DNA from: an uncultured bacterium
Lineage (GTDB): Bacteria > SAR324 > XYD2-FULL-50-16
DNA length: 64,000 bases
Assembly (NCBI GenBank): GCA_965602905.1
Contig: CBFCZY010000003.1
Span: 86,064 to 150,063 of the forward strand
Direction: 5' to 3'
The translations under genes and the position numbers were made by a program. Within the stretch, counting starts at the first letter, position 1. Each line of letters starts with the position of its first letter. The notes below the pieces were generated by a model. That model made no database searches, was not told the origin of the DNA, and saw nothing but the letters and a program-made list of their open reading frames with translations. Below, piece after piece: positions 6,811 to 55,033 of this stretch.

Positions 6811-9579
6811 CTATAGCTTATTTTGAAGGTTTTTACCAAGCTTTTCAATCAAGGTTTGGATGTCATTTGGATGAATTGGCTTGCTTAAATATTGGTCCAT
6901 TCCAGCTTGAAGGTATCTTTCTCTATCCCCGAGCATTGCATTGGCCGTCATGGCTACAATTTCTGGTCGATCGGCCTTTGAGTATTTTGAAATTAGGTAC
7001 TCTGTAACTTCAACTCCATCCATTTCTGGCATTTGAATATCCAAAAGTAAAAGGTCGAATTTTTTACGGTTGACCCAGTTTAAAACTTCCAGCCCATTGG
7101 GGGCGAGTTCTGCTTGGTATCCCAGTTTTTTTAAAATACGCAGTATCAATTCCTGATTCAGTTCATTGTCTTCAGCCACCAAAATACTCATTGGGTACTG
7201 GAGACTCAAAGTGACATTCATTTTAGATACAGTTTTAGCCTGAGGTGGCTCAGCTATAAAAACCTTGGCTGAAAGTTGTAGAAATTCGTTGCAACGAAAA
7301 GGTTTTCTCAAAGAGAATATATTCTCTTTATTGATGCTCACTAATTCTTGGTCTAAGCGGCAAAGTAAAATCAGGGGGATTTTTAATTTTGCTGCAATCT
7401 GAGTAAAGGGGGCCGCCCAAGTTGTAAAATCTTCTGTCCTTGGTAGGTGCAGTAAAATTAATTGGATATCTTCTTGGGCAAGCTGCGCCAAATCTTCATT
7501 ATTTAGGCCTACAGGTAAAACCGTCGCTTGGGCAAATTCAAGTTGTGACTTTAAAAACTGAGAATGCTCGGGGTCGCCATCGACAAGAGCAACTTTTTTG
7601 TTTCTTAGAATTTTGGTTTCACCGATTTGAGGCTGTTTTTCATGTTTACGAGTGGGGAGAGAAAAGAAAAATTTACTCCCCTGGTCTAATGCGGACTCCA
7701 CCCAAATCTTCCCTGACATGAGTTGAATCAATTGCTTGTTGATAGCAAGACCCAGCCCTGTACCACTGTACTTTCTAGTTGCGGAATCATCCCCTTGTGT
7801 GAAGGCATCAAAGAGCTTATTAATTTCGACAGGGTCAATGCCAATGCCGTGGTCTTGGATGCAAAATTCAAGATTTTGGACGTCTTTAATTTCAGTGGAA
7901 GAAAGCTCCACTGTAATGATTACATTTCCGCTTTGAGAAAATTTTACAGCATTAGAAAGAAGGTTGATTAAAACCTGCCGCAGTCGAATTTCATCTGCGT
8001 AAATCCACTCAGGAACGTCTTCACCAATAAAATAAAGAACTTCTATTTTCTTTTCTTGTGCCTTAACAGCGATCAACCCAAGGCATTCATCAAGTAATTT
8101 TCTGATGCTGACATAGTTTTCTTGGAGCCGTAGCCCTTGCGCTTCCATCTTTGAAAAATCAAGGATATTGTTGATAATACTGAGTAGATTCTCACCACAA
8201 AGAGTGATGATATTTGCAAATTCTTCTTGCTCCTCATTGAGCCCACTCTGCTCGAGTAGACTGCTCATCCCTAAAATTCCATTGAGGGGTGTGCGGATCT
8301 CGTGGCTCATTGTGGCTAAAAAATTTGACTTTGCCTGGGTTGCGCTTTCTGCTTCATGTTTGGCAGTGGCGAGCTCTCCCTCTGTCTGCTTGCGATCTGT
8401 AATATCTACAAAAAGGGCGGCAAAGCGATCTGGTTTGGGGAGAGATCCCACAACTTCAATGCTTTTGTCCTTAAATTTAATTTCGAATTTACTGGGTTTA
8501 CCCGAGGCAATTCCCTCTAAACAGGACTCTAGAATGAGCTCTGAAAAATCGGGGCAAACTTCTGAAATAATATGATTTTCAACTTCACTTTGACTGTGAC
8601 CAATAATTTTTTCAAAGGTGCTATTGATCTCTAAAAAGCGGATGTCTTCTACCTTTTGGTCTCGGTTCACATAGGTTTCAAAGAGAGCAAAACCAGAGGG
8701 CATACTGGAAAATAGCATTCGGTATTTTTCTTCTGACTCTGCAATCGCCTTTTCAATGGAATGAAGCTCTGTAATATTTTGCGAAAAGACCGCCACTTGT
8801 GTCAATTCACCTGAGTCCTGATTTACTACCGGGTAAAAGGTATTTTGGAAAAAGTGCCCACTAGATTGGGCATCAGTAATTTGTTGGATGAGTAGAGTCT
8901 CTTTCGTTTTCTCAAACACTTCTTGCCTGCTAAAAACCATTTCCTTTTCATAAAGAGGCCAAATGGATTGACCTTGGATTTCTTCCAGTTGTAATCCAAA
9001 ACCTTGGCAAGCTTTTCTATTGGCTTCTAAAATTACCCCTTCAGGGTCTAAGAGCACTATTTTATAGTTAGGTGCATTGAGCAGAGCTTGGATTTGAGAC
9101 TGTGAAGTTTCCAGCTTTTTGCGGGCCTGGGCCAAAGGAGTGATGTCTCTTGCTATGGTCAAGAGGTGGGGTCTGTTGTCGATAGTTATAACTTCAGAGG
9201 ACACTAATCCCTGGATAATAGCCCCGCCATTTGTAATAAAATCAGCCTCAAAGGAGGTGATTCTGCCATTTTGCTTTAGTTCTGTAAAAAAACGATTTCG
9301 ATCATCGCTGTTACCCCAAAAGGGGATTTCAGAGGAAGTTTTCCCAATGATTTGGTCTTGGGAGAGGCCACTGAGGATTTCAAAACCACGGTTGGCTTCT
9401 ACAAATTTTTCGGTTTCAATATCTACTAAAGTAACTGAGGTAGGGTTGAGTATAAAAGCCTTTTTAAACTTTTCAAGCGATTGATTTAATTTAACTATCT
9501 CAACTTGGTCCTGTTTGCGAAGTTCTAGCAGCTCATCATATTTTTTTTGTAATTCTATCAATGCTGCGTTATCGGTCAT
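6811..9579 (-). CDS. hybrid sensor histidine kinase (coiled-coil, PAS domains, HisKA, HATPase, two receiver domains)
   Basis: H-box [16 protein letters not shown]1/G2 boxes ([23 protein letters not shown]). Two CheY-like domains with DxxMPxMDG. Confidence 0.85.
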
Positions 9580-22732: not shown

Positions 22733-22894
22733 ACCAAAATGGTCTGAACATTTCTGCCCTGTTCGTTATTGTTAGTAAAATTGAGCCTTACTCATGTTTC
22801 GGGGCTGGTCTCTGTTAGTGGTGTGCATGCCCTTTTCATTAAGGGAAGCCTAAAGCTATTATGCTACTCCCACCTGGTAATCCAGGTTCAACAT

Positions 22895-23092
22895 ACTATT
22901 AGCAAACGGCAGGGTGGTTACTTTTAAGCTACAAGATAGCTTTGAGTAGAACTCGTACTATTAGCCAAAGGTTGAGTGGTTACTAAATACCACCTTGACC
23001 ATGAGGTTAGTACGGTTGTTTTAAGCTGCAACGCAGCTTTATAAATAGTAGCCCACGCTACTAGCCATAGGCTAGGGCAGTTACTTTAAAGG
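22895..23092 (+). repeat. three degenerate tandem repeat units (ACTATTAGCnAAAnGG...GTGGTTACT...AAGCTnCAAnnnAGCTTT)
   Basis: Units lie at about 22895..22956, 22957..23059 (with an insertion) and 23060..23092. Each carries an AGCT..AGCT hairpin with compensatory changes (AGCTA-caag-aTAGCT versus AGCTGC-aac-GCAGCT). Confidence 0.6.
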
Positions 23093-45826: not shown

Positions 45827-47617
45827 CTAAACAAAAATAGACTGCGCTTTTAACAGAGCAATGATCTTGGCCGTAACTTCACCTTCATTTTCATGAGGTC
45901 TTACGTTCAAGTCCACTTCATATTGGGTAAAGCGATTTTCCCCAACATTGACTACGGTCAAACCAGTAGGCCCGTTAATCTGCTTTAAAAGCTCCAAATC
46001 GTAGCCATCTTCCACGGCTACAACCGTGATAAAGATCATACCAGCGTCAGTCATAAGCCTTGAAAGTTCACCGAGTCTACGGATCTCTTCACTCCTATTC
46101 CCTCCGCCTTGGGACTCAAAATCGCTATCCAAACCAAGGTTCAAGTTGGTGTAGGCCATGAAATAGGGGTTGAGTCTCATATCAAAGAGGATCTTTTCTA
46201 AGGCTGCGGCCATCTTGCGTTTACCTAGACCATGGTCACCAGTAAAAACAATAGAAGTAGCCTTATGCCCTGATTTTTCCGCACGTCTCGCAGAGTTTAC
46301 CCAACCACGAACCCAAGATTCTTCACGTAATTTTACATGTTGCTCGTCTAGGGTTTTATCTGTGGAAACCGCAGCGGTAATGATTCCACCACCTGCGATT
46401 TCATAGTCATCGACTAAAACAAAGCGGCCTGTTTGGTCGATCCTCCCTGCCAAGTCAAAAACAATGGGTTTTACGGCTTCAAAGATACATTCGGCAACAT
46501 CGTGGCGGTCCACTTGGTTTTTATCAAGGGCGCCAATATCACTGGCATCAACGATGGAAACCACTTCAATTAAGCGCACAGGTAGCCGCTTGGCTCCGAT
46601 CTTGAGCTTGTATTTTTTCCCAATGATCAAGGGCGCTTTACCCATCCAAAAAATATTGGATTTAAACCTTCTCGCTGTAATGGGTTGCTCTTGGTCTAGG
46701 CGCACCAATAATTCCCCTGGCTGCACATAAACTTGCGTTTCTAAAGTTAAACCCAAAGCTCTACCCGCCTCAGCGGTGGCTAAAGTGGGAGCGTTAAACA
46801 GCTCGATAGATTTAATTTTAGAGCGCTTCTGGGAAGGGAGGAAAATAACCTCATCCCCAACCTTGGCAACACCTGTTTGAATCGTTCCTGCAAATATCCT
46901 GCGGTCGTCACCTTCTTCTGTAAACTTGTAAACACCTTGCAAAGGCATTCGGAAAGGCAATTTAGTTTTATCGGTATTGTCGTCCTTTTCCAAAGCATCA
47001 ATCTGACCAATCAGGTGATTGCCTTTAAACCAAGTCATTTTACCTGAGGGCTTGACCATGTTTTCGCCTTGGAACCCACTAATGGGGATGAAAGCGATAG
47101 GGTCCAAGTCTAGGTTCTTCAAAAAGGCTCGGTACTCTGTTTCTGTCTTGTTGAAAGACTCTTCTGAGTAATCCACCAAGTCCATTTTATTGACTACAAC
47201 AACGACTTTTTTGAGCCCCAACATGGAAACCAAATAGCCATGGCGTTTGGTGTTTTCTTGGATTCCCTCTTTGGCATCAATGACAATCATTGCAGCTTCA
47301 GCAGCAGAGGCACCTGTGACCATGTTTTTTAAAAACTCAATGTGGCCTGGTGCATCAATGATAATATAATGCCTGCGCTCAGTTTCAAAAAAACAACGAG
47401 CTACATCAATGGTAATCCCCTGTTCTTGTTCATCCTTTAGTGCATCTAGCAGAAAGGCAAACTCAAAGGGTTTGGCGTTACGAGCGCACTGGTCTTTAAC
47501 CTGTTGTAATTTTCCATCAGGAAGGCTGCCAGTATCGGCGAGAAGCCTGCCAATGACAGTTGATTTCCCATGGTCAACATGGCCAACGGTCACAATATTT
47601 AGTCTTTCTTTTTCCAT
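45827..47617 (-). CDS. cysN: sulfate adenylyltransferase subunit 1 (CysN GTPase) fused to a degenerate APS-kinase-like C-terminal domain
   Basis: [10 protein letters not shown]1 motif, DAPGH and NKMD. The C-terminal 170 aa align to CysC, but the P-loop reads GDHGLGKRK instead of GLSGSGKS and the DGD motif is lost. The start is set at the MEKER ATG. Confidence 0.85.
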
Positions 47618-47639
47618 TTTTTTTAAGCCCCTTTTTCGG

Positions 47640-48521
47640 CTACATGTAGCCTTCACGGCGTAACGTTTCTAAACCACCACCATCTTCTTTATCTTGTGCG
47701 CGTCCGCTACGTTCGGCGATATTGGCGAATTTTCCTGTTTTTAGTTCATTGATAATCTCGTCCACATTTTTAGCTGTGGAATCTACGGTGCTAGTACAAG
47801 GATAGCAGCCTAAAGACCTACAACGAGTACCTTCACCTTGATCAAAGTAGAGGTCGATGATTGGAATTTTTTCTCGCTCGATGTATTCCCAAATGTTCAG
47901 CTCGGTCCAATCCAACAGAGGATGTATCCGCAAATGGGTGCCCTTGGCAAAGTCAGTTTTGTACTGGTTCCAAAGCTCTGGTGGTTGGTCGCCGACATCC
48001 CAATCATTTTCTTGGTCACGGGGAGAAAAAACTCTCTCCTTACTGCGGCTTCCTTCTTCATCGGCTCTCGCCCCTACAATAACCCCTGTGTAGGCGTCAG
48101 TGTTAGAATCCAGTTCGTAATCACCTTTCTCATGGTTGAACCTGTATCTGGGCCAGTTGCCAGAAAGGGTATGCTTCAAGGCTGTGGCCTTTAAATTTCG
48201 GCAGCAATTGATGCGGTCTATGTTTCCATCGGGAAAGGTTTCTTTGTTTTTTAAGGCTTCGGCATTTTCGCCGTACACCATGTTGAGTTTCCACTGGGCT
48301 GCCATTTGGTCGCGGTAGGCGATCATTGCTGGCATCTTGTAGTGAGTGTCAATATGGAGCAAGGGGAAGGGCACATGGCCAAAAAAAGCCTTGCGGGCAA
48401 GCCACAATAAAACCGTGCTATCCTTGCCGACAGACCAAAGCATAACAAGACTTTTAAAGTCCCTGTAGGCTTCACGCAAAATATGCACACTCTTGGCTTC
48501 TAGTTGGTCTATATGATTCAT
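47640..48521 (-). CDS. cysD: sulfate adenylyltransferase subunit 2
   Basis: PAPS-reductase-like fold [17 protein letters not shown]. 293 aa. Confidence 0.9.
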
Positions 48522-48569: not shown

Positions 48570-49274
48570 CTATTTTACAGGTCGGTTGTGTAGGCCACAT
48601 TCTTTGTGTTCTGGCGCTTCCCACCACCACCTTCCGCTTCTAATATCTTCTCCCTCGCTCACGGCTCGGGTGCAAGGTGCACAGCCTATGGAAGGAAAAC
48701 CTTGGTCGTGAAGACGATTATAAACCACCTTGGTTTCTTTCACCTTGGCCCAGAGCTCCTCTTCTGAGCAGGCAAACAAAGGATTGATTTTATATATCTT
48801 ATTGCCCGCATCCCACTCAATGGGTTCCACGTCTGCACGGGTTGCACCTTGGCCAGCCCTGAGGCCAGTAACCCAAGCATCCAAACCACCGAGCACACGT
48901 TGCAAGGGGTTAATCTTTCTGATCTTACAACAGAGCTTGCGATTTTCTAAGGAATCATAAAAAAGATTTGGCCCTTTGTTGGCAATCATCTCTTCTAGCT
49001 CCCCAGTATCGGGAGTATAAACCTCATAGGTTACGCAGTAGCTAGACATAGACCGTTGCATGGAATCATAAGTCTCTTGGAACAAGCGCCCTGTATCTAG
49101 CGTGAAAATCCGAAAGTTAGGGATATCCGCTACAAAGTGAGTGAGCAATTGGTCTTCCACACCAAAACTGCTGGCAAGGGCGACTTTAGTGCCAAAGGTT
49201 TTGTTCGCCCAAAGGAGGATATCCTTTGGGCTTAACCCTTCCAGTTGCTTTTTATAGTTTTCAAGCTGATCCAT
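48570..49274 (-). CDS. cysH: adenylylsulfate (APS) reductase, thioredoxin-dependent, Fe-S type
   Basis: The CC pair (KLCCKIRK) plus CAPC and ECGLH is the Cys set that ligates a 4Fe-4S cluster in APS-specific reductases. The start is set at the internal ATG because the tracked start is TTG. Confidence 0.8.
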   Translation of the reverse strand: MDQLENYKKQLEGLSPKDILLWANKTFGTKVALASSFGVEDQLLTHFVADIPNFRIFTLDTGRLFQETYDSMQRSMSSYCVTYEVYTPDTGELEEMIANKGPNLFYDSLENRKLCCKIRKINPLQRVLGGLDAWVTGLRAGQGATRADVEPIEWDAGNKIYKINPLFACSEEELWAKVKETKVVYNRLHDQGFPSIGCAPCTRAVSEGEDIRSGRWWWEAPEHKECGLHNRPVK

Positions 49275-49276
49275 TT

Positions 49277-51655
49277 TTAGACCTGTGCCTTTTTGATTAC
49301 TACAGCCCAATGACCATCGTCGGCCTGTTCTTGGCTTAAGATTTCATGACCCTCCAACTCAACGGAGCCTGGAACGTTTGCAATGGGTTCCCCGTCATCG
49401 AGTAAAATTTCTAAAATTTCACCTACTTTCATCGGGTCCAGTGCAATTTTTGTTTTCACAAAGTTCATCGGGCATTTTACGTCCCTAAAGTCTTTATAGA
49501 CAGCTCTTTGTTCCAAACTTACAGCAGTACCTTCACTAATGGCTTCTTCCTCTTCTTGGTTCTGGATGAGGTCATCCAAATGAAAGCGGAGGCTATCGTC
49601 CATGCTGTGATACAGATCTAGCATTAATTTTGCTAAGTCCAAAGCTGGCTGCAATTGGCCAGATACCTTATGATCAGAAGCGCTTAAAGCCGACTCAACC
49701 AATGATTGGAAGTCCTTTGAAACAATGCGACCGCCGATGAAGTCTTTAATAAAGGCTTCAAATACTTGGGTGTCGCTTTCCGCTTCAATTCCTTGGGTTA
49801 CGAGCAAGGACCGAGAAGCATGGAGGGTTAAGCGGTAAGCTGCTATGTCCTCTGGAATTTCTTTAACTTCCAAAGCCTTCTGGATGCTTCTGATTTCAGT
49901 GAAATCATAATCAATCATATCGTATAGGCCAGCGGAGCATTCTGCCTTCTTACCCTTGAGTAGGCTAAACCTGCTGTCATCAGACCAGTCATGGTAATAG
50001 TCGGCATTAGCATCTAACTCAGGCATTGCCTTGTCATACTTTTGAGCCAATTCTTTGATCATAAAGAAGGCAGGCTCACTTTTTAAATATTCTCTAAAAT
50101 CGCCCAACTCAGCTTTGTTGGCTTTGTAGTGCTCAAAGAAATCACCAACTAAAGCGGGGATATCCTTGGCCGCAGCCGTTGCTGCCCTTGCTGCCGTTTC
50201 AGTAGTACCGTCACCTAAGTGACCACCAAGCTGAATGACATAGGCTGGGTAAAGATGCTGGTTGCGCTTTAGTGCCTTGCCGAAAAAACCAATGTCAGCG
50301 ACATGGTTATTGGAGCAAGCGTTTGGGCAACCTGAAACATTAAAACTAATTCCAGCAAATTCTTCTGTATCTAAGTTTCTTTTGATCAACTCTGTCTGCA
50401 CAGCCTCAGTTAAAGGTCGGGCTAACGTTACCCCAAGAGTACAGTTGGCGGCACCAGTACAGGCGATCATGCTTCCAAAAAAGACAGGTTCAAAAGCGCC
50501 TGTGTCTAGGGTCTTTAAAAAATTAAATACATTGCCTAGGTATTCTGCTGGGATGTTTCTCAAGTTAAAGTTTTGGTCAGGGCTCAGGCGAATTACATTT
50601 TCACCAAAGTCCTTTAAAAACTCACCCATTTTTTTAGCATCGGAATTTTTTAAGATACCAAACTTTAAAGGGATACGAACTTGAGATAGTCCCTCTTGTT
50701 TTTGACCCTTTACATATCTTTGTTTCCACAGATTAAAGGCTTCTAAATCACTCGCTTCTTCAACTTTAACTGCCGCTGATACTTGGGCCTCATTTGGGAA
50801 ATCAGACAAGTCTAATTCTAGGTCTCGATCCTGTTGGAGCAGGGCGTAGTATTTGTAAAAGAGAGCCGTAAAGTCTTCTTGGCCCATGCGTTCTACAAGC
50901 CATTTTATCTTGGCTCTATTGCGTTGTTTCCTGTTTCCATTTTCGTCAAAAAGAACCTTGATGGCCTTGGCTACATAATAGACTCGGTGCTCAGGGACAA
51001 AGTCCAACAAGACTTTACCATACTTAATGGCTGAGCCCGTACCGCCACCGACATAGACCTTAAAGCCCTTTTTTCCATCTTGGATTTTTGCAAGGAAACC
51101 TAAGCAGGTTAGGGTGGCCTTTGCCGAGTCGTTCTTATTGGCAGAAAAACTGATCTTCAGCTTTCGGGGCATGTTATAGGAATCTGCTTCTGCGATGAAT
51201 CTAGTGGTTAGCGCCATGGCGTAGGGAGCTACGTCAAAAACATCGTCAGGGTTCACGCCTGAGTCATAAGATACAGACATGTTTCTGGTAGTGTTTCCAC
51301 CGCCAGCTCGACCTGAAAGGCCAACAGATTTGAGTTCATTGGTGACTGTGATCAAGTCTTCCAACTTTAAATAAGAAAGTTGGAATTCCTGTCTCGTCGT
51401 GGCGTGAAGGCGGTCGCATGCAAATTTCTCAGATACCTCAGCAATTTTGACAAGTTGGGCAGGGGTCATAGCGCCTTGGGTGGCCCTTGCTCTCATCATA
51501 AAGGTTCCAGATTCTCTCTGCTCATAGATTCCGTGTGCAACACGAATGGCTTTGAACTTAGGTGGGGCAATTTTGCCCTGGTTAAAATCTGCAATTTGCT
51601 CTTTAAACTTGGCTATGTCTTGGTCCAAAGTTTCTGGTAGCTGGTAAAAATTCAT
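49277..51655 (-). CDS. assimilatory sulfite reductase hemoprotein (siroheme/4Fe-4S) fused to an unassigned middle domain and a C-terminal TusA-like domain
   Basis: Siroheme/Fe-S Cys motifs CTGAANC and SGCPNAC. The C-terminal 70 aa (DVKCPMNFVKTKIAL...GHEIL...VVIKK) resemble TusA. 792 aa. Confidence 0.85.
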   Translation of the reverse strand: MNFYQLPETLDQDIAKFKEQIADFNQGKIAPPKFKAIRVAHGIYEQRESGTFMMRARATQGAMTPAQLVKIAEVSEKFACDRLHATTRQEFQLSYLKLEDLITVTNELKSVGLSGRAGGGNTTRNMSVSYDSGVNPDDVFDVAPYAMALTTRFIAEADSYNMPRKLKISFSANKNDSAKATLTCLGFLAKIQDGKKGFKVYVGGGTGSAIKYGKVLLDFVPEHRVYYVAKAIKVLFDENGNRKQRNRAKIKWLVERMGQEDFTALFYKYYALLQQDRDLELDLSDFPNEAQVSAAVKVEEASDLEAFNLWKQRYVKGQKQEGLSQVRIPLKFGILKNSDAKKMGEFLKDFGENVIRLSPDQNFNLRNIPAEYLGNVFNFLKTLDTGAFEPVFFGSMIACTGAANCTLGVTLARPLTEAVQTELIKRNLDTEEFAGISFNVSGCPNACSNNHVADIGFFGKALKRNQHLYPAYVIQLGGHLGDGTTETAARAATAAAKDIPALVGDFFEHYKANKAELGDFREYLKSEPAFFMIKELAQKYDKAMPELDANADYYHDWSDDSRFSLLKGKKAECSAGLYDMIDYDFTEIRSIQKALEVKEIPEDIAAYRLTLHASRSLLVTQGIEAESDTQVFEAFIKDFIGGRIVSKDFQSLVESALSASDHKVSGQLQPALDLAKLMLDLYHSMDDSLRFHLDDLIQNQEEEEAISEGTAVSLEQRAVYKDFRDVKCPMNFVKTKIALDPMKVGEILEILLDDGEPIANVPGSVELEGHEILSQEQADDGHWAVVIKKAQV

Positions 51656-51664
51656 GCCTTTCCT

Positions 51665-52057
51665 TTAAATTATAGTGAACTCCTCTGGAGTCACTTTTTC
51701 AGATGCGATTTTAAAACTTTTTGCATAGGGAGTCTCCTCTGCAAAAGAGATAATTACATATGAAATTGTAGGGTCGTAAGCTAGAGCAATATCTTCGATA
51801 CTGGGCCTAGCTGGTGTTTCTGGGTGGCTGTGGTAAACAGCCGCTACTTGGTAGCCTGCGTCTCTAATGGCGCGAACAGTATTAAACTGCTCTTTTGGGT
51901 CCATGGAGTAATGTTCTGGACTTTGGTCCGTATTATAAAGCTCGTAGTGAGCGATAACAACTCCATCTTTGGATGCCAGATAGCCACAACACTCGTTGGG
52001 CAGCTCTTTTGCCCCTTGGGCAATTATGGCATCAACCACTTCCTTTTTTATGTCCAT
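51665..52057 (-). CDS. JAMM/MPN+ metalloprotease (Mec+/HcyD/QbsD-like)
   Basis: E..CG and HSHPETPARPSIED JAMM motif. 130 aa. Confidence 0.8.
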   Translation of the reverse strand: MDIKKEVVDAIIAQGAKELPNECCGYLASKDGVVIAHYELYNTDQSPEHYSMDPKEQFNTVRAIRDAGYQVAAVYHSHPETPARPSIEDIALAYDPTISYVIISFAEETPYAKSFKIASEKVTPEEFTII

Positions 52058-52872
52058 TAGTGCTTTGCTGTAATATCACAAAGAGGCATTTCCGCTTCTT
52101 CTAATTCTGTGATAATAGGGTTAGCGCCACAAATGGGGCAATCATCCTGCTTCTTTAACTTGATCTTACGAAATTCCATTTCTTTGGCTTCGAAGGTCAA
52201 TAGGGAATTGGTAAGGGGCGTGCCCACACCTGTAATCCACTTTAATGCTTCGGCAGCTTGCATGGTTCCTAGCATTCCTGCGATTGCGCCCAAGACACCT
52301 GCTTGTGAACAAGTAGGAACAGCGTTGGCTGGAGGTGGCTCACGGAAAACACATCTGTAACAGGCAGATTCACCAGGGATAACCGTCATGGTCTGGCCCG
52401 TAAAGCGTAAAATTCCACCGTGACTGTAAGGCTTGTTTTCCATTACACAGGCATCGTTGATCAAGAATTTAGTCCCAAAGTTATCTGTTCCATCAACAAT
52501 AAAGTCGTAAGGAGCAATGATCTCTTTGATGTTTTTGTGATCCAAGTAAGTCTGGTAAGTCTCCACCTTCACGTCTGTGTTAATGGCTTCCATTTTTTCT
52601 TTCGCAGAATCCACCTTCAATTTATCCACATCCTTAGTAAAATGGATGATCTGTCGTTGTAGGTTGGAAAGGTCGACCACATCGTTATCCACAATGCCAA
52701 TTGTCCCAACACCTGCTGCTGCAAGATATAATGCGATAGGTGCGCCGAGGCCACCTGCACCAATGATTAGAACCTTTGATTCTAAAAGCTTGCTTTGGCC
52801 CTTAACACCAACATCCTTTAAGATGATGTGCCTTGAGTAGCGTTCTAGTTGTTCTTCTGTAAAATCTATCAT
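52057..52872 (-). CDS. ThiF/MoeB-family E1-like adenylyltransferase (no rhodanese domain)
   Basis: Nucleotide-binding motif GAGGLGAP and Zn-ribbon Cys pairs CYRC and CPICG. Confidence 0.8.
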   Translation of the reverse strand: MIDFTEEQLERYSRHIILKDVGVKGQSKLLESKVLIIGAGGLGAPIALYLAAAGVGTIGIVDNDVVDLSNLQRQIIHFTKDVDKLKVDSAKEKMEAINTDVKVETYQTYLDHKNIKEIIAPYDFIVDGTDNFGTKFLINDACVMENKPYSHGGILRFTGQTMTVIPGESACYRCVFREPPPANAVPTCSQAGVLGAIAGMLGTMQAAEALKWITGVGTPLTNSLLTFEAKEMEFRKIKLKKQDDCPICGANPIITELEEAEMPLCDITAKH

Positions 52873-54101
52873 AATGTCTCCAGTGCCTTTGCAATGTCTT
52901 CTTGTAAATCAATAAAGTCTTCAATCCCTACACTCAAACGGAGTAATGTGTCGGGAACGCCCATTTCAGCCTTCTTCTCTGGTGAATACTCACAGAAAAT
53001 GGTTGAAGCTGGGTGAATGATCATTGATTTATTATCGTTTAAGTTTGTGGTGCGCTTGATTAATGTCAAGGCATCCATAAATTGATAACACTCCTCTTGG
53101 GAGTTTAAATTTAATGTCAGTATTCCACCAAACCCATTTGGAAATTGCTCTTTGGCAATTTCGTGGTGGGGGCAGGATTTTAATCCAGGGTAGTTTACAT
53201 GAGCCACTTTTGGGTGGTCTTCAAGGTATTCTGCTAAGCTTTGAGCATTGTTGCAACTGGCTTTAATGCGAAGGCTTAAAGTTTCTAAACCTAAAGCTTG
53301 CTGCGCCGCACTGTGGGGGCTTAAGCATGCGCCTAAATTTCGATAAACCTGGGTTCTTAATGTAGCCATTAAAGCCATAGGCCCCATTTTTCGGGCCTTG
53401 TCAGCTAGCTTAACAGAAGTCTTCCAATCAAAGTTTCCATTGTCGATAATCACACCACCAACGGAAGTTGCCCCGCCAGACATATATTTGGTCGAGCTGA
53501 TAATTTCCACATTTACCCCATGCTCCTTTGAGTTAAAAAGGTAGGGTGTGGTGACGGTACAGTCTGCTGCAAAGGGTACCCCTGCGGCTTTGGTGATTTC
53601 AGCAATTTTCTTGATGTCCACCACTTCCAACTGGGGATTGGTGATGTTCTCGCAAAAAACTAATCTTGTATTTTCATCAATGGCAGCCTTAACTTCTTCA
53701 GTGTTGGTCATATCCACATATTTTACATCGAGGCCCCAAGGTTTTAGGCTGTGCTCAAATAAGCTTACCGTATTTCCAAAAAGATTCTTCGAAGTTACTA
53801 CGTTGGTGCCGGTTTCGCATAAGGTCATAACCAAATTTGAAATGGCAGCCATGCCACTTGAAAGTGCCAACACGGCAAATGAGCCGCTAATGAGCCTTAC
53901 CTTTTGTTCAAAGTCTTCTACAGTGGGGTTGCTGATTCTGGTGTAGGCATGGGCAGGTTTTTTACCTTCAAAGGCCAGTTGCAGGTCACGAGAAGTTCCC
54001 AGTTCAAAGGATACCGTTTCATAGACAGGTACACGGAGTGCCCCATGTACATCTTGTTTGAAACGTATTCCGTGGATTGCCTTAGTGTTAAAGCCTTTCA
54101 T
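52869..54101 (-). CDS. metY: O-acetylhomoserine sulfhydrylase-family PLP enzyme
   Basis: Cys/Met-metabolism PLP fold with the STKYMSGG lysine block. 410 aa. Confidence 0.8.
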   Translation of the reverse strand: MKGFNTKAIHGIRFKQDVHGALRVPVYETVSFELGTSRDLQLAFEGKKPAHAYTRISNPTVEDFEQKVRLISGSFAVLALSSGMAAISNLVMTLCETGTNVVTSKNLFGNTVSLFEHSLKPWGLDVKYVDMTNTEEVKAAIDENTRLVFCENITNPQLEVVDIKKIAEITKAAGVPFAADCTVTTPYLFNSKEHGVNVEIISSTKYMSGGATSVGGVIIDNGNFDWKTSVKLADKARKMGPMALMATLRTQVYRNLGACLSPHSAAQQALGLETLSLRIKASCNNAQSLAEYLEDHPKVAHVNYPGLKSCPHHEIAKEQFPNGFGGILTLNLNSQEECYQFMDALTLIKRTTNLNDNKSMIIHPASTIFCEYSPEKKAEMGVPDTLLRLSVGIEDFIDLQEDIAKALETL

Positions 54102-54130: not shown

Positions 54131-54340
54131 TTATTTACTACCACCACCCATGAAGTATAAAAAGTCTACTTCACTGCCAGCTGCTAGAGTGGTTGATTCA
54201 TAGGCATCCTTGTCAACGAATTCGCCGTTCAGTTGAACCGAAACCATCTCAGGATTGTCTACATTATTTTCTGTTAAAAGTTGAGCGATGTTCATGCCTT
54301 CTGTGATTGATTTGGCTTCGCCGTTTACTTTAATGTCCAT
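54131..54340 (-). CDS. ThiS/MoaD-like sulfur carrier protein with a C-terminal GG-GSK extension
   Basis: 69 aa. IKVNGE...LNGEFV...GSEVDFLYFMGGGSK. The beta-grasp pattern matches ThiS, and the Gly-Gly is followed by three extra residues. Confidence 0.7.
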   Translation of the reverse strand: MDIKVNGEAKSITEGMNIAQLLTENNVDNPEMVSVQLNGEFVDKDAYESTTLAAGSEVDFLYFMGGGSK

Positions 54341-54616
54341 TGTTTCTCCTAGTCTTTACCTGATAAAGTTGATCAAGTTAGTCAAGTTATAAAAGATATG
54401 GCCTGAATTGTCAAGCCGTAATCCCCATACGTAGGGATGTAGAAAATATAACTCGTTGCAAAAAAAAAGGCTAGACCTTTAAGATTCAAGGAGATTTAAA
54501 GAAAAAAGAAATGGAATCAGGGAAGGACTTTCGGGAAGTTTTCTGTAACTTTAGTAGTTAATACTACCAAAGCTAAAGAGGGTGTGCCTGAGAGGCTACA
54601 CCAAGAAGAGCAAAAT

Positions 54617-55033
54617 TTAGATGTGATACATCACTGTTTCTTGGAGTTTTTGCTGCTCTAAAATCAAGTCGGCTAAAGAAATTTCTAGGTCGTGTTTTAG
54701 CGTCTTTTCCATCTTTTCAAAGAGGTTATAAATGGCATCCACTTCTCGCTCTGTGCCAGAGGTTAGCTGGATTCCACCTTCTAAAACTTCGATCAGCTCT
54801 AAAATAGTCAAGTTATTTGGGTCTTTTGCTAGTTTATACCCGCCCTTTTTCCCTCTTACCGAGTTGACTACTCCAGCATTCACAAGACGGTTGAAAATCT
54901 GCTCTAAATATTGCCGAGGAATTTGTTTCTGCTGGGCAATTTCTTTAATTTGAATGAGACCACGCCCATAATGTTCGCCTAAGGCGAGTACGGCCTTGAT
55001 TCCATATTTACATTTTGCACTAATAGATAACAT
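54617..55033 (-). CDS. Rrf2-family transcriptional regulator (CymR-like, no Fe-S cysteine triad)
   Basis: wHTH IKEIAQQKQIPRQYLEQIFNRL. The only Cys is at position 8. Confidence 0.75.
   Translation of the reverse strand: MLSISAKCKYGIKAVLALGEHYGRGLIQIKEIAQQKQIPRQYLEQIFNRLVNAGVVNSVRGKKGGYKLAKDPNNLTILELIEVLEGGIQLTSGTEREVDAIYNLFEKMEKTLKHDLEISLADLILEQQKLQETVMYHI

Follow-up and report, generated by a model that had tools for sequence, protein, structure and literature searches.

How is a sulfur-carrier protein made ready for its chemistry when its reading frame does not stop at the terminal glycines? The question is raised by a short gene at 54131..54340, on the minus strand of a 64,000-nucleotide stretch of DNA from an uncultured SAR324 bacterium (hereafter, the window). 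Capped carriers with JAMM proteases are textbook biology, and an earlier note on this DNA had read the end of the encoded protein as FMGG followed by a three-residue extension, GSK, which a JAMM protease from the same operon would remove, as in the HcyS-Ala/HcyD and QbsE/QbsD systems. Sulfur carriers with a cap typically depend on a JAMM protease to free their terminal glycine (PMC6006322, PMC5925218). Here we ask what the carrier and its operon are, where the cap begins, and whether the neighbouring protease is a plausible maturation enzyme.

Results

The carrier and its operon

The open reading frame is as the earlier note described it, 69 codons for amino acids on the minus strand with the C-terminus ...FMGGGSK. 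Profiles of Pfam and NCBIfam, an alignment and an AlphaFold2 model led us to assign its product as an HcyS-type sulfur-carrier protein of the ThiS family. The tail is ...SEVDFLYFMGGGSK, and the last codons, GGT GGT GGT AGT AAA TAA, give ...DFLYFMGGGSK. The alignment places the glycines G65-G67 of the invariant C-terminal motif FLYFMGGG at 54140..54148 and the two-residue cap S68-K69, in the most likely parse, at 54134..54139; the stop codon TAA lies at 54131..54133 (all minus strand). In profile searches the protein matches Pfam ThiS (E=1.6e-12) and TIGR01683 (E=6.4e-17; 61.7 bits against a cutoff of 37.45, a score that cannot separate ThiS subfamilies), and both profiles terminate on residue 67, the third glycine. 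The AlphaFold2 model, for which a 42-sequence alignment was the input, is a confident beta-grasp fold (mean pLDDT 86) whose final strand stops at residue 62, leaving residues 63-69 as a low-confidence, disordered and accessible tail. Its assignment to the ThiS family of beta-grasp proteins is secure, and its glycine C-terminus is flexible. Metagenomic carriers that are 97-99% identical to it and come from independent assemblies have the C-terminus GGGSN, and GGGSK is found in more distant ones; thus, the stop codon is real. A sequencing error or a mis-called stop is ruled out, as these near-identical carriers are capped and so is the family as a whole.

The carrier gene is the first of a minus-strand operon in the order carrier, MetY, ThiF-type E1, JAMM, Sir-TusA, CysH, CysD and CysN/C. 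The genes for MetY and the E1 overlap by 4 nt and those for the E1 and the JAMM protein by 1 nt, and the other gaps measure 9-29 nt. The second gene (52869..54101, minus strand) encodes a MetY-type O-acetylhomoserine sulfhydrylase, a PLP enzyme of the Cys_Met_Meta_PP family (PF01053, E=3.6e-109). The third (52057..52872, minus strand) encodes a ThiF/MoeB-type E1 adenylyltransferase of 271 aa that is HcyF-like and consists of a ThiF domain only, with a GAGGLG nucleotide loop and two CxxC motifs and without a rhodanese domain. The fourth (51665..52057, minus strand) encodes an HcyD-like JAMM/Prok-JAB metalloprotease of 130 aa (Prok-JAB, E=4.8e-24), in which the catalytic signature is intact (E22 and H76-S-H78-x7-S86-x2-D89). 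The presence of a JAMM gene in the carrier's operon, on which the earlier note had relied, is therefore borne out by the profile match and the tight minus-strand packing.

The remaining genes encode sulfate assimilation. A siroheme-type sulfite reductase (49277..51655, minus strand), with two NIR_SIR and ferredoxin-like half domains, carries a C-terminal TusA/SirA fusion at residues 722-789 (PF01206, E=3.2e-18); the fused TusA domain may be the route by which the E1, which has no rhodanese domain, and the carrier receive sulfide or persulfide. The (P)APS reductase CysH was identified by profiles at 48570..49310 (minus strand), and it is probably translated from the ATG at 49274, right after the Sir stop codon. 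CysH carries CC...CxxC cysteines, which are typical of iron-sulfur APS reductases. CysD, the small subunit of sulfate adenylyltransferase (47640..48521, minus strand), is followed by the last gene of the operon (45827..47656, minus strand), which encodes the GTPase subunit CysN with part of an APS-kinase-like domain fused to it. That domain spans residues 467-545, covers positions 3-80 of the 152 of PF01583 and has a degenerate-looking P-loop (GDHGLGKRK). Because it is partial, because its P-loop looks degenerate and because CysH has the cysteines of the iron-sulfur type, the domain may be non-catalytic.

Inspection of the operon leader (54346..54414, minus strand) revealed a sigma70-like TTGACA (54414..54409) separated by a 17-nt spacer from TATAAC (54391..54386), and an AGGAG ribosome-binding site for the carrier gene (54350..54346) with a 5-nt spacer, all on the minus strand. 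Three tandem ACTTGA-type repeats (ACTTGAC-TA-ACTTGAT-CA-ACTTTAT, ~54387..54360, minus strand) follow the putative -10 element and precede the ribosome-binding site. Directly upstream of the operon, profiles identify an Rrf2-family (CymR-like) transcriptional regulator (54617..55033, minus strand), which occupies the same position in a SAR324 relative (L001), and the repeats may be the operator for it. The promoter and operator roles of these elements are predictions from the sequence. A terminator-like hairpin at 54417..54400 overlaps the putative -35 element. A riboswitch search gave no hit, either at the gathering threshold for the window as a whole or at E<=1 for the operon leader. Elsewhere, the window carries a 6S (SsrS) RNA gene at 22748..22924 on the plus strand, scoring 92.7 bits to Rfam RF00013.

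Relationship to the Wolinella HcyS/MetY system

The best PDB match of the window MetY is 3RI6, at 422 bits, and the next chain scores 296 bits. We take 3RI6 to be the MetY of W. succinogenes (structure: Tran et al. 2011). W. succinogenes MetY takes its sulfur from a carrier-protein thiocarboxylate (PMC8191291, PMC6271081) and is unusual in this sulfur source; it is also the one MetY whose structure the literature describes (PMC8191291). By similarity, the window MetY would fall in the thiocarboxylate-using clade. For a comparison of whole loci, the 3RI6 sequence was rebuilt from the HMMER alignment, a 100%-identical database protein (P0207) was found and its contig was retrieved. This reference locus (L081, a Logan contig) is tied to W. 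succinogenes only by the 100% identity of its MetY to 3RI6. Its genes are arranged as DUF2061-CysH-CysD-CysN-ThiS(69 aa)-ThiF-JAB(130 aa)-Sir+TusA-CysG, with metY divergent. Full-length identities between window and reference are 48% for the carrier, 48% for MetY (407 aa), 65% for the E1, 48% for the JAMM protein, 38% for Sir-TusA, 44% for CysH and 63% for CysD. Since these seven proteins align full-length to their counterparts, the window operon is, judged from sequence comparison, an ortholog-level relative of the HcyS/HcyF/HcyD/MetY/Sir methionine pathway.

Both loci have a 69-aa FLYFMGGG carrier with a cap, a rhodanese-less E1, a 130-aa JAMM protein, MetY, CysH, CysD, CysN and a Sir with a TusA fusion (764 aa in the reference). 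They differ in the cap, which is Ser-Lys (two residues) in the window and Ala (one residue) in the Wolinella-type locus, and in gene order: in the window metY separates the carrier gene from the E1 gene, with the genes for sulfate activation further on, whereas the Wolinella-type locus has cysH-cysD-cysN ahead of the carrier and a metY that is transcribed divergently. Only the window has the APS-kinase-like extension on CysN and the Rrf2 regulator upstream, and its host is a SAR324-cluster bacterium, whereas Wolinella belongs to the Campylobacterota. Among the matches listed, the best genomic match to the window is a SAR324 MAG (JASJGK010000044) that has the genes in the same order and is 83.7% identical in nucleotide sequence across 12.1 kb, with neighbouring proteins at 85-98% identity.

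Neighbourhoods of this kind were catalogued by Iyer, Burroughs & Aravind in 2006 as type 4e, with Wolinella listed (PMC1779556, Table 1 row 4e); the type comprises a ThiS/MoaD-like protein, JAB, a rhodanese-less E1, SirA, sulfite reductase, PAPS reductase, ATP sulfurylase and O-acetylhomoserine sulfhydrylase (PMC1779556). The window operon is exactly this neighbourhood, with no substantive difference. It is a SAR324 member of a characterised system that has been in the catalogue since then; to our knowledge, SAR324 was absent from the genomes available in 2006.

Other carrier systems share parts of this logic. QbsE/QbsD (Pseudomonas fluorescens, thioquinolobactin), CxnE/CxnF and PtmS2/PtmS1 likewise pair a capped carrier with a cognate JAMM protease that acts before adenylation, and their caps are GG-CF on QbsE (removed by QbsD), GG plus 10 residues on CxnE (CxnF) and GG-MV on PtmS2 (PtmS1) (PMC6006322, PMC5925218). 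Those carriers serve secondary metabolism (siderophore or antibiotic), are MoaD-like or distant in sequence and use a MoeZ-type rhodanese E1, whereas the window system points to methionine synthesis, a primary pathway, with a TusA domain and an E1 that lacks rhodanese. We rejected a QbsE/QbsD-type secondary-metabolism carrier, as the operon contains sulfate-assimilation genes and MetY only. In the CysO/MoeZ/CysM/Mec+ system of M. tuberculosis, too, a carrier thiocarboxylate is passed to a PLP enzyme and a JAMM protein (Mec+) hydrolyses the carrier-amino-acid adduct; CysO is not known to be capped, so Mec+ would have no maturation role. CysM is a fold-type-II enzyme that uses O-phosphoserine and yields cysteine, in contrast to the fold-type-I MetY of the window. 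A CysO/CysM/Mec+ identity was rejected, as the partner PLP enzyme belongs to Cys_Met_Meta_PP and not to the PALP family of CysM/CysK type.

Caps and JAMM genes across the family

A genome scan found carriers of the FLYFMGGG type in at least 576 species-level genomes, from phyla that include SAR324, Planctomycetota, Acidobacteriota, Fibrobacterota, Bacteroidota, Campylobacterota, Clostridia and Spirochaetota. The earlier note had named a family ending exactly at the glycines as the outcome that would refute its reading; instead, 274 of the 281 unique family members (97.5%) carry variable residues after GGG, mostly one to four of them. Pooled over these 281 carriers, the cap is absent in 7 (2.5%), one residue long in 118, two in 79, three in 25, four in 33 and five or more in 19. 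Caps turn over fast: 27 of the 30 multi-member clusters at 70% core identity hold more than one tail, the carriers that share 75% or more of their residues with the window protein end in SK, SN, A, Q or R, and the carrier of the closest relative ends GGG-R. Under neutrality, with a stop probability of about 6% per codon, tails would average about 16 residues; the observed tails are far shorter than this read-through expectation, and tail length is therefore held short. In Clostridium spp. the carriers have a semi-conserved four-residue cap, x-x-G-[F/L/I] (TFGL, ALGF, SIGF, NSGF, SFGL, SLGI, SFGI), and outside Clostridium spp. the caps are unconserved.

Of 80 carrier loci, 77 have the E1 gene and 71 the JAMM gene. 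In six of the nine loci without JAMM the contig is truncated, with less than 2 kb of sequence left downstream. In the other three (L019, L049 and L053), the carriers are capped, flanking DNA is ample and no JAMM gene was found locally; JAMM adjacency is therefore not obligatory. Conversely, a loss of JAMM where the cap is absent was looked for in the two uncapped loci among the 80, L060 and L070, and was not found: both keep JAMM genes with intact motifs. Co-occurrence of cap and JAMM alone is therefore no proof of a trimming role.

Several loci depart from the usual arrangement. The uncapped L060 has two JAMM paralogs of 133 and 137 aa at ~10009 and ~14395 (plus strand), with one motif region altered (HSHPTITANPSAED). 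L049 and L053, both from Bacteroidota, have the carrier tails QR and NIG and no JAMM gene within 16 kb; just upstream of the carrier lies an open reading frame (~7023..7976) whose N-terminus looks cysteine-synthase-like by eye (…LIGNTPLLEL…). If this is a cysteine synthase, the arrangement would resemble CysO/CysM and not HcyS/MetY. In a Bacteroidetes MAG (L032:8001 onward), the carrier reading frame runs past GGG into a domain of ~157 aa (…KKLSLISFSGDFDKLVAAFTLASG…), which occurs in L049 as a separate open reading frame just downstream of the carrier (8315..8800). Two database proteins, P0246 (478 aa) and P0299 (482 aa), are apparent ThiS-MetY fusions in which FLYFMGGG is followed by QS or ELEIK and then by the start of MetY (GFTTRAIH...). 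Their carriers would need cutting after GGG, an extreme form of cap, or the fusions could be artefacts of stop-codon loss.

Position and origin of the cap

The claim that an extension follows the glycines held, and its length and parse did not. Read by itself, GGGSK permits either FMGG-GSK or FMGGG-SK, and canonical descriptions of ThiS and MoaD give a GG terminus, so that the functional diglycine might be G65-G66, with three residues (G67-S68-K69) removed by the JAMM protease. We consider this very unlikely in view of the conservation at the C-terminus. In the 42-sequence alignment, which covers many phyla, no variation occurs at L61, Y62, F63, M64, G65, G66 or G67, and the three glycines are likewise given as invariant among the 281 family members, seven of which end exactly at GGG and none at FMGG. 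GGG is followed by S, A, Q, R, K, N, E or C, and by glycine in only 1 of 78 loci. Both ThiS HMMs stop at G67, and the B. subtilis ThiS (1TYG chain B), whose native end is ...HFVGGG, aligns to G65-G67 with its last residue on G67. The Wolinella-type carrier ends ...NFLYFMGGGA, that is, GGG-A, and in the work of Krishnamoorthy & Begley (JACS 2011) HcyD reportedly strips only the C-terminal Ala of HcyS-Ala and later frees homocysteine, from which it follows that the mature end of HcyS would be GGG. On the strength of glycine invariance, the profile ends, the seven GGG-ended members, B. subtilis ThiS and the Wolinella-type GGG-A, the extension is most likely the two residues S68-K69, with cleavage after the third glycine.

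If the cap is S68-K69, its origin and the identity of the carrier still have to be weighed. The cap could be neutral read-through that is trimmed by, for example, a general carboxypeptidase, with the JAMM protein acting only as a carrier-homocysteine hydrolase; the unconserved cap sequences with their mixed clusters, the JAMM genes kept where the cap is absent and the three capped carriers without a local JAMM gene would all suit such an origin, yet the caps are near-universal and tightly length-limited, far from a neutral geometric distribution, and the apparent ThiS-MetY fusions would need an endoprotease cutting precisely after GGG. In addition, the cognate JAMM protein is the trimming enzyme in QbsE/QbsD and other systems and, reportedly, in Wolinella, and we accordingly give this reading only a slight chance. 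A role outside homocysteine synthesis altogether, as an ordinary thiamin ThiS or as a SAMP/TtuB-type ubiquitin-like modifier with a JAMM deconjugase, appears extremely improbable. The TIGR01683 model is a thiS equivalog and the carrier exceeds its cutoff, but ThiG, ThiH and ThiO were not found, every open reading frame from 45.8 to 57 kb having been assigned another function, and a thiamin ThiS was rejected for want of thiazole-synthase gene context. The E1 and the JAMM protein do match the models of the SAMP-activating E1 and the desampylase, but their 331.6 and 66.5 bits fall short of the respective curated equivalog cutoffs of 450 and 130 bits, and archaeal-type SAMP/UbaA/JAMM1 conjugation was rejected on this ground. 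Both identities also conflict with an operon made up entirely of sulfate assimilation and MetY and orthologous to a characterised methionine cluster.

Discussion

We hold with considerable confidence that the open reading frame encodes the precursor of an HcyS-type carrier for protein-thiocarboxylate-dependent homocysteine (methionine) synthesis, matured by JAMM cleavage, in a SAR324 bacterium. The neighbouring JAMM protein very probably trims the Ser-Lys cap. JAMM-dependent maturation, which the earlier note had predicted by analogy with HcyS-Ala/HcyD and QbsE/QbsD, gains support because the window operon is orthologous to the Wolinella-type HcyS cluster, and conservation supports it as well. 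The second role that the note had suggested for the protease, as an adduct hydrolase, would fit the uncapped members that keep their JAMM genes.

Orthology suggests the following cycle, which would run as expected in Wolinella: the cap is removed, the carrier is adenylated and thiocarboxylated, O-acetylhomoserine is added and JAMM hydrolyses the product. The HcyD-like JAMM protein would cut between G67 and S68, removing Ser-Lys and exposing ...FMGGG-COOH, and the HcyF-like ThiF-type E1 would adenylate the terminal glycine, G67. Sulfide from CysD/CysN/CysH/Sir would convert the acyl-adenylate to the thiocarboxylate, possibly with the involvement of the fused TusA. The MetY-type PLP enzyme would then join O-acetylhomoserine to the carrier thiocarboxylate, forming carrier-homocysteine, which the same JAMM protein would hydrolyse to homocysteine and regenerated carrier.

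Why a carrier should be capped at all is a separate matter. Zero-length tails are rarer than tails of one or two residues, which, in counts made without phylogeny correction, hints at selection for the cap. It is conceivable, though on our estimate doubtful, that the cap is a selected 'pro-carrier' device that keeps the precursor inactive until the cognate JAMM protein is present; such a cap could block adenylation by ThiF, MoeB or other E1s, or conjugation. If this is true, JAMM processing would be a control point of methionine sulfur flux, and the apparent ThiS-MetY and ThiS-DsrE-like fusions would be extreme versions of the same logic.

The SAR324 cluster is an abundant, largely uncultured marine lineage. 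The operon indicates that a bacterium of this cluster makes homocysteine by a protein-thiocarboxylate route and not by free-sulfide sulfhydrylation alone. The window system leaves the understanding of the mechanism unchanged, and our additions are modest: the cleavage site is moved to after the third glycine, and capping is near-universal and fast-evolving in the family. Because the carrier scores above the NCBI ThiS cutoff, automated annotation would name it 'ThiS' and the pathway would be hidden. The same annotation problem is said to have been raised by Price et al. in 2018 for the protein-thiocarboxylate homocysteine pathway. Structural-genomics entries carry comparable labels. PDB 2K5P/3CWI, labelled 'ThiS', is a capped HcyS-family carrier (…EFLYFMGGGK), and PDB 2KKS, labelled 'uncharacterized protein', is a close homolog of the operon JAMM (110 bits); thus, structures of both family types already exist under uninformative names.
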